Shown: positions 33,001-39,000 of the stretch, one piece after another | Numbering within the stretch: position 1 is the first letter of the stretch | How the letters are laid out: every line of letters begins with the position of its first letter | Assembly (NCBI RefSeq): GCF_003790525.1 | Contig: NZ_CP033635.1 | Reading direction: 5' to 3' (one strand) | DNA: 64,000 nt | DNA from: Escherichia coli | GTDB taxonomy: Bacteria > Pseudomonadota > Gammaproteobacteria > Enterobacterales > Enterobacteriaceae | Made by a program: the position numbers

Positions 33001-36000
33001 GTTGCTGCTTCAATATCATCTTCTTCTTTCACTTTGCTGGTTTTCAGCAGAATGGCAGAGACAACGAAGGAGACTGCCATTGCCGCACACACACCCGCGA
33101 TGTTAGCGAAGTAAGCACCTTTTGGCGTCATCGCCAGTACAGCAAGGATAGAACCCGGAGATGCCGGAGAAACCAGCCCACCGCCCAGGATAGTCAGCGT
33201 GAATACGCCAGTCATACCGCCGAGGATAACGGCCAGAATCAGACGCGGATTCATCAGCACATACGGGAAGTAGATTTCGTGGATACCCCCCAGGAAGTGG
33301 ATGATTGCCGCACCGCCCGCAGACTGTTTAGCGCTACCACGACCAAAGAACATGTACGCCAGCAGCACGCCCATACCCGGACCTGGGTTAGCTTCAATCA
33401 GGAAGAAGATGGATTTACCCAGTTCATGGGACTGCTGAATACCCAGCGGCGAGAAGATACCGTGGTTAATGGCGTTGTTGAGGAACAGGATTTTCGCCGG
33501 TTCAACAAAGATAGACGCCAGCGGCAGCATGTCATGGACAACCATGAAGTTAACGCCCGCCGCCAGCATTTTAGACAGGGCTTCAACAACCGGGCCAATG
33601 CCGAGAAATGCCAGAATAGCGAGGATCATCCCGATGATACCAGCGGAGAAGTTATTCACCAGCATTTCAAAACCGGATTTGATCTTACCGTCTACCCAGC
33701 GGTCGAAGTGCTTAATGCACCAGCCGCCCAGCGGACCTGCAATCATAGAACCGAGGAACATCGGCATGTCTGCGCCGACGATAACGCCCATGGTGGTAAT
33801 GGCACCGACTACGCCGCCACGTTCGCCGCCTACCAGCTTACCACCGGTATAACCGATCAGCAGTGGCAGGAGATAAGTGATCATCGGCCCGACCAGCTTC
33901 GCCAGCGTTTCGTTCGGTAACCACCCTGTTGGAATAAATAACGCGGTGATGATACCCCACGCGATAAACGCGCCGATATTTGGCATCACCATGTTGCTGA
34001 GGAAACGACCAAAGCTTTGCACTTTGATCTTAATATCGGATGACATAAAAACACCCCTTCTTATGTTTGCTGTCGCGCAGGCTGGAAGCCCGAGGTTTTT
34101 TGTTAATGTGGCGGCAGAGGTAGCCGGACCTTGTAGATACTGCGAAATCTGGCACTGAATCGGTTAACTGTCCAGTCAACGGCTTTTTGTGTGATATGAA
34201 TCACATAAATATAGGGGGTAGAGAGGTAATTGACGTGATGTGCATCACAAAACTCTTGTGTAAAAAAGCAACAAGGCGGCGATTTTCGCTAAAAATGGCA
34301 TTTAAATGTGAGTAATGTCACATTTTTGTTTTGTTAGTTTGTTGAATCTTTGTGATCTGAATCACAAGATATTTTCTTACGGCGTTCACCTGATGTGATC
34401 TGCAGCATGTTATGCCTTCGTCATAAAATCGTTATGTAACTAAGCAACTCATCACCTCTAAAAATTATTCTTCGGTGTTATGGCGAGAATCGCCAACCCG
34501 GATTATTGTCAAAATATCAGCCCGACTCCCATCTGGCTGCCAGCCAAAAACAACACTGATAAACGTGAATCCGAGGCAGATATGTTTCTAAACTACTTCG
34601 CGTTGGGAGTGCTGATCTTCGTCTTTCTGGTGATTTTTTATGGAATCATCGCGATACATGACATCCCTTATCTGATTGCCAAAAAGCGTAATCACCCCCA
34701 TGCCGACGCTATTCATACAGCGGGCTGGGTGAGCCTGTTTACTCTGCATGTTATCTGGCCGTTCCTGTGGATCTGGGCGACGCTCTATCAACCGGAGCGT
34801 GGCTGGGGTATGCAGTCACATGTTGCGTCGCAGGAGAAAGCGACTGACCCGGAAATCGCCGCACTTTCTGACCGAATTTCCCGGCTGGAGCATCAACTCG
34901 CCGCCGAGAAAAAGACTGACTATTCCACGTTCCCGGAGATCTAAATATGGATCTATTGATTGTTTTAACTTACGTGGCGCTGGCGTGGGCGGTCTTTAAA
35001 ATCTTCCGCATTCCGGTAAATCAGTGGACGCTGGCGACGGCGGCGCTGGGAGGCGTGTTTCTGGTGAGTGGTTTGATTTTGTTGATGAACTACAACCACC
35101 CTTACACTTTTACCGCGCAAAAGGCAGTGATAGCGATCCCCATCACGCCACAGGTGACGGGAATTGTTACTGAAGTCACCGACAAAAATAATCAGCTTAT
35201 TCAGAAGGGCGAGGTGCTTTTTAAGCTCGACCCGGTTCGTTACCAGGCGCGAGTTGACAGACTTCAGGCTGACCTGATGACGGCGACGCATAATATAAAG
35301 ACGCTGCGCGCGCAGCTCACTGAAGCGCAGGCCAACACCACCCAGGTTTCAGCGGAGCGCGACCGTCTGTTTAAAAATTATCAACGTTACCTGAAAGGCA
35401 GCCAGGCGGCGGTGAATCCGTTCTCGGAACGTGACATCGACGATGCGCGGCAAAATTTCCTCGCGCAGGACGCGCTGGTGAAAGGCTCGGTGGCGGAGCA
35501 GGCGCAGATCCAGAGCCAGCTCGACAGTATGGTTAACGGCGAGCAGTCGCAGATTGTGAGCTTAAGAGCGCAACTTACTGAAGCAAAATATAACCTTGAG
35601 CAGACTGTCATTCGCGCACCGAGCAATGGCTACGTTACTCAGGTACTGATCCGCCCAGGTACATACGCAGCTGCCTTGCCGCTACGTCCGGTGATGGTTT
35701 TCATCCCCGAGCAAAAACGGCAAATTGTCGCCCAATTTCGGCAGAACTCGCTGTTACGTCTGAAACCCGGCGATGATGCGGAAGTGGTGTTTAACGCGCT
35801 ACCTGGGCAGGTGTTCCACGGCAAACTGACTAGTATTTTACCTGTCGTGCCAGGCGGTTCGTATCAGGCGCAAGGGGTACTGCAATCATTAACCGTCGTG
35901 CCCGGCACGGACGGTGTGCTGGGAACCATTGAACTGGACCCTAACGATGATATCGATGCTTTACCCGACGGCATCTACGCCCAGGTGGCAGTCTACTCCG

Positions 36001-39000
36001 ACCATTTCAGCCATGTTTCGGTGATGCGGAAAGTGCTGCTAAGAATGACCAGTTGGATGCATTATCTTTATTTGGATCATTAAATAATATTAATGTATTG
36101 AATCTTGTAAATGTGGTTGAGAGCAAAAAATTGCAAATACAGGACATGAGAATTCGCTGTTCAGGCAGCGAAACTCGAGCCCTTTTTGTCTAGTCCACTG
36201 AGAATATAAACGCTCCTTTGATGCCCAAAAGTGGACATTTAATTATTTCTTTTTACCTTGAGAGAAAACTGTTTCGGTGTAATACCAAAATAGCTCTTAA
36301 AGTTTCGAATGAAATAAGATGTACTGGTATATCCAACATCATATGCAATACTATTAATATGTTTTTCAGTGGATGTAATCATCTTTGCTGCATGATGCAT
36401 TCTGATATCTAACACCAACGCATTAAAGTTATTGTTTTCTTTTTCAAGTTTTTTTCTAATCGAAACCTCAGACATATGCAAAATATCCCTAAGATCCATT
36501 AACTTCCAATTTCTTGATAAATCTGATTCGATAATTTTTTTGATTTTTTCTGTAAAAGTGATATCTGTTGAAACTGATAGTGAATAAACAAGAGGTTCAA
36601 TTTCATGGATTCTGGAAAGTAAATAGGCTATTTTATAAACTTGTCTGTGTTTCGGTAAGTTATTATTAATCAGACGTTTAAAAATTTCTTTATCTGTTTC
36701 CTCAAGGATATAAAAAAATATTTTTTTTCTTATTTGACTCACTAGTTGATGGCCTAAAAGAAGTGGCTCCATAACCTTACACACGCTATTTAATAGATAG
36801 CTATCAATAGTATAGATATCATAAGGTATACCGCTGCCAAGCACTTTTAATGTTGCATCAACGACAAGATTCTTTTCTATATAGCATAAAGAAAAAGGAG
36901 GGATGTTAATAACATCTCCATCTTTTGCTTTAATAACTAATTGTGCATTTCTAATAAAAATCATTGCGCTATTATAAAAACGAATTTTTTTAATGTAAGT
37001 GTATGATTTTTGTCTAGATTTCTATTGACAGAGATGTCAAGCTTTGTACAAGTAACTCGACTATTCATAAAGCCACCTCATGCTTTGTATATATATAATT
37101 CCATGAGTTATTAAGTTGTGTAAACTCGAAAATTCAACGTGAGTTAATTTTAAACAATCTAACAAATAATTAAAAAAACAATGAATTATATGCGTAATGG
37201 ATGTAATCACTATAAGAATAATAATATTATCGTAATGAAATTATGCGTAATTAACGAGTCAATCCTCAGGTTCAATTGTTTGGTTAAAAAAAATTCTTAA
37301 TAATGCGGGTAATTTCCTGGTTGTTTTCATCCCCAACTTAACTTTGATGCGACTGACTCGATAATAGATTTTTTCTTTTGAGAGATTAGTCATTTTTGAA
37401 ATCTCTCTTACACTCTTACCATGAAAATAGAAAAGGTATAAAATCTCCATTTCAATATTATTTAAGGAGTTTATTGCTTCACTTACCGATGCCTTCTTTT
37501 TATGAATGTAGATAGAGTTATGATGTATTCTAATATTATTAGTATCAATACACTTTATCGATTTTCCGGATAACAGAAGACTATATGCATAATAATTTTT
37601 AATATCACAAATAAGATAAATCTCATTTGTATCAAAATCAGCTCTGACTATGTCATCGATTTCTGTAAAATCTATGCATCGAAATGTTTTGTTAATATCA
37701 GATATCAACCGCATCCCGTAATTGAAAAAATTATTATCACTGGCAAGTATAAAGACAAGATTCATACATATCCTAAAATATTATCTTTTATATTATGCGA
37801 CAACTATAAGATAAAGATTTTTTAATATCTACATTAAAAATATAAAGATTTGATAAAAAACTATAACTAATTAACCAGTAAAATAACAATAATTACTTTT
37901 AGTAGAGTTGAGTACTTCAGGTGACGCTCATTATCGTATGCATTTATATAAATGATCTATAATCATTTTTCAGTATAAGGTCGTTTCATGTTGTTGATCT
38001 GTTGAGGAATATTCATTGTCACAATTAAGATATGTTCAAGGTAAATGGTATGTTTTCTTCAAAAAATCCCGACTTCAATAGCAGACAATCTGTTGCCATC
38101 AAAAGAACAATTGAACTTTTACTATAGGCATGTCGTGACAGATAAGATTATGTTGTTAAATACACTCTAAAATTTAAATTTTACTTATCAAAACATTCAA
38201 TTTCCATGAGGATAACTTTAAATATAAATAAATGGCGCAATAAATAAAACTATTTCGTCCTTAATTTGAAGACTATTCATAACAAGCATAAAAAATAAAA
38301 ACATCAAGAATAAAAATGAAAGTTAATTTAGCGTGTGTTTTCTAAATAAAATAAAGAGATATAAAAACCAGATAATGAGGTTTTATTGTTGACCATCTTA
38401 TCTTATGCGAGGTAATTTTTGCGACGTTCATGAACTTCTGGGCATGAACAAATATAGGACTAACCGAATTTGGGGCTAACAATTCTTTAAAGGCTTTAAG
38501 GAGCATTAAATGAAAAAATTGGTTTTAGGTTCAGCTATTCTTGCTGTACTTGGGATGACTTCTACTGCAATGGCTGCAAACAGTGGTACTGTTAATTTTA
38601 CAGGGGCTGTATCCAGCGCAACGTGTGATCTTAAAGTTACAAATGCTTCTGGAGCTGAGATACCTACAGTTGATTTAGGTACTGTATCAACGACGGGAAC
38701 ACCTGCTTCAGTTCAATTTAAGCTTGTTCCTTCAGATAATGCTTGCTTGGCAAAAAATGGAGCCCAGATTAGCTGGACATCAAATAATTTAACAACCCAA
38801 GGTTTTAGCAATGCAACTACGGGGGGAACAAATGCATATATGGCATTACTTACTTCTAATGCCCAAGAAACTGGTGCGAGCTCATATGTTAAATCCGGTC
38901 AAACTACTTTTAACTATCAAGTAACTAGTGGCGGTATTCGATCTTTTGATTACAGTGCTTCGTTAGTTAAACCTACTGGTACTGTGACTCCAGGCGCATT

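Follow-up and report, generated by a model that had tools for sequence, protein, structure and literature searches.

Two pairs of adjacent genes, yibI-yibH and yiaW-yiaV, lie in a 64,000-nt stretch of the Escherichia coli contig NZ_CP033635.1 (RefSeq assembly GCF_003790525.1), hereafter referred to as the window, which over both pairs is a 100% match to E. coli SMS-3-5 (NC_010498.1, reverse-complemented). All four are E. coli "y-genes" that lack an assigned function, and no published function for yibI, yibH, yiaW or yiaV was found in the literature searched. The locus raises two questions: what do such pairs do, and do they, as direct repeats, rearrange the DNA between them? An earlier note made from the sequence alone (the original prediction) had proposed that they could lead to its deletion or inversion. 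We consider it highly probable, as one joint statement, that the two pairs are ancient copies of one conserved, translationally coupled two-gene module, that its EmrA-like adaptor has a DUF3302 protein as obligate partner, and that the copies have no role in recombination. As to function, we tentatively favour, at somewhat less than even odds, the explanation that this old module, through its EmrA-like adaptor, forms a tripartite-type conduit.

Two collinear copies of one gene pair

Open reading frames (ORFs) for the four genes (Table 1) were found on the same strand and in the same order, with a start-to-start distance between the pairs of 22,652 bp (~22.65 kb); the pairs are thus collinear direct paralogues about 22 kb apart, as had been predicted. 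The stop-to-start gap is 2 nt between yibI and yibH and 5 nt between yiaW and yiaV. YibH and YiaV align without gaps and are identical at 291 of 378 residues (77%, E = 0), and the identity of YibI and YiaW at the protein level is 74% (E = 8e-62). Pairwise alignment of the two modules therefore revealed clear homology and not a marginal similarity. The homology extends from ~15 nt upstream of the ATG of the small gene, that is from the ribosome-binding region, to the stop codon of the adaptor gene; the flanks are unalignable.

The nucleotide identity is 70.1% for yibH and yiaV (ungapped, 1137 nt; 78, 88 and 45% at the three codon positions) and 76% across the first 210 nt of yibI and yiaW, which correspond to the conserved DUF3302 core. 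These values agree with an estimate of 70-80% made by eye, but only at the low end of its range. The protein termini, thought to be identical, are nearly so at the N-termini of both protein pairs and at the C-terminus of the adaptors (one difference in the last 35 residues), whereas YibI and YiaW diverge in their C-terminal tails. Promoter and terminator scans around both modules gave background-level signals only. The paralogy of the two pairs is in itself ordinary, and databases already hold both the genes and their annotations.

DUF3302 proteins are fixed to a distinct adaptor subfamily

Both YibI and YiaW match the Pfam family DUF3302 (PF11742), YibI with E = 3.3e-41 over model positions 1-76 of 77, that is over the full length of the model, which bears out the prediction of a tiny membrane partner in each pair. 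YibI and YiaW have two predicted transmembrane (TM) helices and a highly conserved basic, histidine-rich loop, and a flexible linker tethers their C-terminal helix. In the AlphaFold2 (AF2) model of YibI (pLDDT 86), helices 2-26, 28-35 and 41-68 precede a linker of 20 residues, which leads to a last helix (90-113). Alignment of the family revealed the near-invariant core HDIPYxIAKKRNHPHxDAIHxAGWVSLFTLHxIWPFLWIWA. By the positive-inside rule the basic loop would be cytoplasmic and both ends of the protein periplasmic. The family comprises 819 clusters at 50% identity among 1.84 billion proteins. No NCBIfam model matched YibI or YiaW, and a search of solved structures gave chance-level matches only (best E = 0.002, to rhodopsins).

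To define the genomic setting of DUF3302, 72 genome loci, 80 metagenome loci and a few individual look-ups (~150 loci in all) were surveyed. They contained 125 complete DUF3302-adaptor pairs. The same adaptor subtype follows every DUF3302 gene for which downstream DNA is available, with zero exceptions, and the stop-to-start gap is mostly between -4 and +5 nt; several distant DUF3302 representatives are on contigs too short for context. The adaptors come in two sizes, ~378 and ~319 amino acids, the difference being made by ~60 residues of the α-helical hairpin. In adaptors with as little as 36% overall identity, conservation persists in the two-TM region at the N-terminus and in the last 30 residues, the latter with the signature AVYSDHFxHVxxMRKILLRMxSWxNYLxLxH. 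It is probably through these conserved termini that the adaptor contacts the membrane and the DUF3302 protein. DUF3302 itself is far more conserved than the periplasmic domains of its adaptor.

Additional copies of the module were observed in some genomes. Serratia grimesii has a second copy that is 59-60% identical to YibH and YiaV, Citrobacter sp. NCU1 carries an extra copy beside a LysR-type gene, and in Pantoea agglomerans a copy is located on a 548-kb plasmid.

YibH and YiaV are EmrA-like periplasmic adaptors

The identification of the larger protein as a membrane fusion protein was correct. Pfam domains CusB_dom_1 (4e-15), HlyD_D23 (5e-9) and Biotin_lipoyl_2 (3e-4) were detected in YibH and YiaV, with the arrangement that defines the HlyD family (TCDB 8.A.1): a lipoyl domain split by an α-helical hairpin, then a β-barrel. 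YiaV is already listed in TCDB as an "uncharacterised" entry, 8.A.1.1.4. The AF2 model of YibH (pLDDT 84) consists of TM helices 2-19 and 26-50, the lipoyl domain, a hairpin of two ~56-residue helices (97-152 and 161-218), the β-barrel and a C-terminal helix (355-374), which is conserved, basic and amphipathic. A membrane-proximal domain is absent. Membrane anchor, long hairpin and lack of a membrane-proximal domain together make up the architecture of the EmrA type.

A structure search with YibH returned 71 adaptor matches in the PDB at E <= 0.001. The best was E. coli EmrA in the EmrAB-TolC complex (8zal/8zar; E = 1e-20, TM-score 0.62-0.67), which was also the best PDB match by sequence (1.7e-11). 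YibH and EmrA have in common the lipoyl domain, long hairpin, β-barrel, an N-terminal inner-membrane helix and the missing membrane-proximal domain, and their HMMER alignment is collinear through the hairpin with a gap of 2 residues. Their sequence identity, however, is only 18-20%. Unlike EmrA, YibH has two N-terminal membrane helices, a conserved C-terminal helix and an obligatory DUF3302 partner, and it has no adjacent gene for an EmrB-type 14-TM transporter of the MFS class.

Profile searches likewise placed the adaptors near, and outside, known families. The nearest NCBIfam models for YibH and YiaV were EmrA/EmrK, MdtN and AaeA, all with scores far below their cutoffs. For EmrA/EmrK, YibH scored 113.5 against a cutoff of 390.8 (TIGR00998) and 57.1 against 563 (NF011715), and YiaV gave similar values. 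The sole model passed by YibH is the generic RND_mfp (99.9; cutoff 94.9), which YiaV fails (85.8). MdtN of the MdtNOP system ranks first or second among the matches of YibH, of YiaV and of the short-hairpin adaptors from metagenomes, but its score is 111 (cutoff 376). No gene for an MdtO-like transporter adjoins the module, and channel genes do so only in distant lineages with short hairpins.

The gene order, in which a small two-TM protein is encoded directly upstream of an adaptor, resembles that of AaeX-AaeA-AaeB and YdhI-YdhJ-YdhK, where a DUF1656 protein and an adaptor are joined by a FUSC/ArAE transporter. The resemblance goes no further: the AaeA model scored 75 against a cutoff of 400, no AaeB-like gene follows yibH or yiaV, and homology between DUF3302 and DUF1656 is undetectable. 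DUF3302 was accordingly rejected as a relative of AaeX/DUF1656 (hhalign probability 0.1%). AcrZ, which acts with AcrB, is also a small membrane protein dedicated to efflux assembly; unlike DUF3302 proteins, which are two-pass and genetically fixed to an adaptor, AcrZ is single-pass and binds the transporter.

Genes that accompany the module

As the original prediction had stated, no transporter gene is adjacent to either pair. Inspection of the neighbouring genes in E. coli (mtlA, the island or yibF, aldB, yiaU, yiaT) found no efflux-type transporter gene beside yibIH or yiaWV. The product of mtlA is a permease of the phosphotransferase system (PTS), and the MFS gene beyond yiaT encodes a GPH sugar symporter paired with a GH127 glycosidase; both were discarded as partners. 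The usual place of an HlyD-family gene, beside a transporter of the RND, ABC, MFS-DHA2 or FUSC/ArAE type, was found neither in E. coli nor in the ~150 related loci, where no RND, MacB-type ABC, FUSC/ArAE or EmrB-type gene flanks a pair. In three loci an EmrAB-like pair is 6 kb distant, but it has its own adaptor. A RadD helicase gene (three loci) and genes for HipA-like proteins, nitroreductases and ABC importers were judged to be synteny noise.

Outside Enterobacteriaceae, the pairs were grouped into 23 lineages at 70% adaptor identity. In 5 of the 23, all with short-hairpin adaptors, a gene for a NodT-type outer-membrane channel is directly adjacent on the same strand (TIGR01845 score 234.6, above the cutoff of 210). 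In 6-7 of the 23 the directly adjacent gene encodes a cation:proton antiporter of the CPA1/CPA2 type (Pfam Na_H_Exchanger, 1.3e-44), and CPA-family proteins are the sole recurrent polytopic neighbour of the pairs. The pair-adjacent CPA proteins are only 34-41% identical to each other, and the gene orders differ. Four-gene arrays of CPA, DUF3302, short-hairpin adaptor and NodT-type channel are present on two metagenomic contigs (L145, 5882-8992; L156, 4246-8343). CPA and channel genes number only a few among the thousands in a genome, so that finding them adjacent in a quarter of the lineages is, by a rough estimate, very unlikely to be due to chance. Rarer recurrent neighbours are PqiAB-like genes and genes for DUF3313 lipoproteins and PPK2.

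To our knowledge, CPA antiporters are not a recognised partner class of periplasmic adaptors. No description of a pump with the architecture of the CPA-DUF3302-adaptor-channel arrays was found among the papers listed in a literature search for NhaP together with an adaptor or channel. The available text of a 2021 review of tripartite pumps names only ABC, RND and MFS transporters and mentions neither YibH nor YiaV. Of interest is the module itself, a distinct adaptor subfamily that is fixed to DUF3302, has no canonical transporter and shows an unexpected link to CPA antiporters; the interest is modest as it stands.

A proposed tripartite-type conduit and its alternatives

The mechanism that we tentatively put forward is as follows. 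The DUF3302 protein and the adaptor would form a fixed complex in the inner membrane. The adaptor would oligomerise into an EmrA-like funnel reaching an outer-membrane channel (TolC in E. coli), which would produce a conduit of the tripartite type, and the energising inner-membrane partner would be encoded away from the module in Enterobacteriaceae. The CPA (Na_H_Exchanger) antiporter, the most frequent linked transporter, would be the candidate engine, and the NodT-type channel the outer-membrane partner. The NodT-type genes adjacent in the five distant lineages are indirect evidence that the funnel may dock on an outer-membrane factor, and the channel and Na+/H+-exchanger genes beside distant modules suggest a tripartite-type conduit.

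Several observations weigh against this proposal. Channel genes adjoin only modules of the ~319-residue class and never those of the 378-residue class to which the E. coli adaptors belong. Most lineages have no channel or CPA gene nearby, and PqiAB-like, DUF3313 and PPK2 genes recur as well. R-x3-L-x6-S is the canonical TolC-docking motif of the hairpin tip in AcrA and MacA. It is missing in YibH, YiaV and 89 of the 91 long-class homologues; it is present, at position 119, in 8 of the 20 short-class homologues, and the tip of YibH resembles that of EmrA instead. The ORFs of the related loci were called mechanically, and the metagenome contigs have no taxonomy and are in many cases short. In addition, yibH has been used as a neutral integration site in MG1655. 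Published observations on mutants are weak: an IS1 insertion in yiaW had no phenotype in the sole assay run (phagosome maturation), and deletion of yiaW is reported to raise Ca2+ transformation and deletion of yibH in Klebsiella pneumoniae to reduce plaquing by evolved phages.

The main alternative is that the conduit is self-contained, with the helices of DUF3302 and adaptor acting as an inner-membrane translocation unit that needs no separate transporter; there would be four helices per protomer pair and ~24 per hexamer. Such a design would account for DUF3302-adaptor-channel arrays that have no efflux-class transporter nearby (L006, L110, L160 and L082/L083), where the neighbours are an importer, a protease and a SulP protein. 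In tripartite pumps the adaptor gene is normally beside the transporter gene, and it is the channel gene that is usually unlinked, the reverse of these arrays. The membrane helices and connecting loops are, moreover, the most conserved parts of both proteins and contain invariant His, Pro and Trp residues. No energy-coupling or substrate-binding domain is recognisable, however, the CPA gene adjacent in 6-7 other lineages suggests a separate engine, and the small two-TM proteins AcrZ and AaeX are accessories rather than transporters. We regard a self-contained conduit as rather unlikely. Less probable still is a role in envelope maintenance or scaffolding, in which the module would build a periplasmic structure anchored in the inner membrane for outer-membrane, lipid or lipopolysaccharide (LPS) homeostasis. 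PqiA/PqiB-like MCE transport genes adjoin the module in two loci and in four Pantoea loci, and genes for DUF3313 lipoproteins (six Enterobacterales loci) and YahO-type stress proteins recur as neighbours. In E. coli yiaWV travels with yiaT, which encodes a MipA/OmpV-family protein, and with yiaU, whose product is reported to regulate yiaT and the LPS-core waa operon (PMC9068703). The transformation and phage phenotypes of the deletants would also fit, but they are indirect and some are cited second-hand. Each of the neighbour associations is confined to a few lineages, while the adaptor fold and hairpin length are of the channel-docking type and channel genes are adjacent in five lineages.

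The tripartite-type conduit is thus the explanation that we prefer. The further step of regarding DUF3302-adaptor modules as an undescribed class of tripartite envelope-spanning system, either CPA-energised or transporter-less, we consider improbable at present. In that case the E. coli partners would be unlinked: TolC and perhaps one of the CPA proteins CvrA/YcgO, YjcE, KefB/C or YbaL. If a CPA antiporter truly drives a tripartite conduit, it would be a new energising class beyond RND, ABC, MFS and FUSC/ArAE. For these "orphan adaptors" the comparative data allow a testable proposal, an EmrA-like periplasm-spanning DUF3302-adaptor complex with TolC and CPA proteins as candidate partners.

The two copies are old and have not rearranged the region

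Synonymous divergence (dS) between yibIH and yiaWV is saturated (estimates 1.0-4.5), nonsynonymous divergence (dN) amounts to 0.17 in the adaptor gene and ~0.05 in the DUF3302 core, and the dN/dS ratio (omega) is below 0.1. When one genome per species was scanned, the two pairs were found 8-9 kb apart in several Citrobacter species and in E. whittamii, in the order yibIH-yibF-selA-selB-yiaY-aldB-yiaWV and without fic. In Pseudocitrobacter both pairs are on one contig. In a neighbour-joining tree of the adaptors, a distance-based method, the YiaV clade is limited to Escherichia, Citrobacter and Pseudocitrobacter within the sampled set and lies outside all YibH-like sequences of Enterobacterales. 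Either an ancient duplication followed by losses or an ancient acquisition would fit this position; a recent local duplication does not.

The near-identical termini had raised the possibility of recent gene conversion between the copies, and the C-terminal 100 nt of the adaptor genes are indeed 81% identical, compared to 51-60% in the hairpin region. The same terminal segments are, however, conserved in homologues from unrelated contexts that are only 36-47% identical overall; constraint on the protein therefore explains them, and they are no trace of recent duplication or conversion but a property of the whole subfamily. Long identical tracts are absent. With saturated dS, a third-position identity of just 45% and termini conserved family-wide, recent duplication and conversion were rejected, and we hold conversion to be extremely improbable.

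Equally remote is the proposal that the modules, as direct repeats, cause the segment between them to be deleted or inverted. They are in the same orientation, 1.5 kb long and 22.65 kb apart, and their longest identical run, 26 bp, is close to the shortest that allows RecA-dependent exchange in E. coli. Inversion does not come into question, because direct repeats give deletion or duplication and never invert DNA. Deletion was assessed with a 3-kb split query that joined 1.5 kb upstream of yibI (mtlA side) to 1.5 kb downstream of yiaV (yiaU side). Matching pieces no more than 2 kb apart were merged, so that a deletion leaving a hybrid module would be expected to give ~100% coverage, and the threshold was set at >=80%. 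None of the 5,425 complete E. coli genomes reached this coverage, that is, in none have the flanks been brought together. At 70% identity and with dS saturated, the modules are poor substrates for deletion, which would also take out selA and selB. The arrangement predates the divergence of Escherichia and Citrobacter and has been stable since, and the rearrangements and indels that do occur have breakpoints elsewhere than in these genes. Neither mark of a recombinogenic repeat, near-identical DNA and breakpoints within the repeats, was thus found, and no contribution of the modules to regional plasticity was detected. As a lead to structural variation the result is negative: the repeats are old, stable and irrelevant to variation between mtlA and aldB.

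Sources of variation in the region

The plasticity of the region is due to insertion of an island after yibH, to gain and loss of the yiaW-V-U-T block bounded by repetitive extragenic palindromic (REP) elements, and to IS1. The coordinates of these features and of the modules are given in Table 1. The notion that the two pairs flank a variable segment holds on one side, where the island adjoins yibH, but not on the other, where 8.4 kb of mostly conserved genes precede yiaW.

Table 1. Modules and variable features of the window
Feature	Coordinates	Strand	Description	Basis
yibI	34582..34944	+	DUF3302 inner-membrane protein, 120 aa	ORF; annotated yibI in SMS-3-5
yibH	34947..36083	+	EmrA-like periplasmic adaptor, 378 aa	ORF, Pfam, AF2
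Strain-specific island	36084..48338 (12.3 kb)		AraC-like and LuxR-like regulators, chaperone-usher fimbriae, S6 (SPATE) autotransporter	Annotation
Genes between the pairs	48339..56690	+	yibF, selA, selB, yiaY, aldB (conserved), fic (strain-variable)	Annotation
REP-type palindromic elements, left edge of yiaWVUT block	56718..56804		Homology of block-less strains ends here	blastn of L004/L005 junctions against the window
yiaW	57234..57557	+	DUF3302 paralogue, 107 aa	ORF, alignment with YibI
yiaV	57563..58699	+	Adaptor paralogue, 378 aa	ORF, alignment with YibH
yiaU	58696..59670	-	LysR-type regulator ("LpsR"), in yiaWVUT accessory block
yiaT	59794..60534	+	MipA/OmpV-family outer-membrane protein; last gene of the yiaW-V-U-T block
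REP-type element, right edge of yiaWVUT block	60583..60640		L005 homology resumes at ~60599

While yibH is near-core (5386 of 5426 complete E. coli genomes), the island that follows it is rare (72 of 5426). Most strains cease to match the window at the stop codon of yibH (~36081). In strains that lack the island, the next feature after yibH is either yibF, 70 bp downstream, or an Rhs element. The fimbrial operon of the island is of the PefC chaperone-usher type, and its S6 autotransporter, a serine protease autotransporter of Enterobacteriaceae (SPATE), has 1271 amino acids. At position 36984, in the 5' part of the gene for the AraC-like regulator beside the fimbrial operon, the window has a run of seven T and NC_010498.1 a run of eight, the one discrepancy found between the two; the regulator ORF is 241 amino acids long in the window versus 276 as annotated. 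The discrepancy could reflect phase variation at this homopolymer or arise from sequencing. The genes between the island and the left REP elements are those that a deletion between the paralogues would remove. In O157:H7 strain Z892 a deletion extends from yibL into the 3' end of yibH, of which 103 bp remain.

The yiaWV pair is accessory (3767-3805 of 5426 complete E. coli genomes), and about 30% of E. coli genomes are without the whole yiaW-V-U-T block. In block-less strains aldB adjoins araD/sgbE or a GH127-symporter-AraC block, and at least four configurations of the aldB-sgbE interval were observed. An IS1-flanked deletion in strain GDSC2239PM removes yiaW through yiaM. Within the block, yiaV and yiaU converge, with a 4-nt overlap of their coding sequences (58696-58699). 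Expression of yiaV has been reported to be 1.5-fold induced in biofilms, and the available text of a genome-wide association study of Vibrio vulnificus names "yiaV" with no mechanism given.

Minor features of the neighbourhood were also recorded. The fic gene (53749-55044), between yiaY and aldB, is also present in both B2-like strains examined; it is not at this position in the E. whittamii and Citrobacter loci or in strain GDSC2239PM. Between aldB and yiaW, on the minus strand, is a small ORF (56909-57064) of 51 amino acids, annotated as a 47-residue hypothetical protein, with a hydrophobic segment; E. whittamii and some of the Citrobacter loci also have an ORF in this place. Downstream of yiaT, at 60665-64000, are the GH127 glycosidase gene and the gene for the GPH-family sugar symporter. 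This GH127-symporter block is variably present: it is followed by an AraC regulator gene in another strain and is a pseudogene in strain SK1144.

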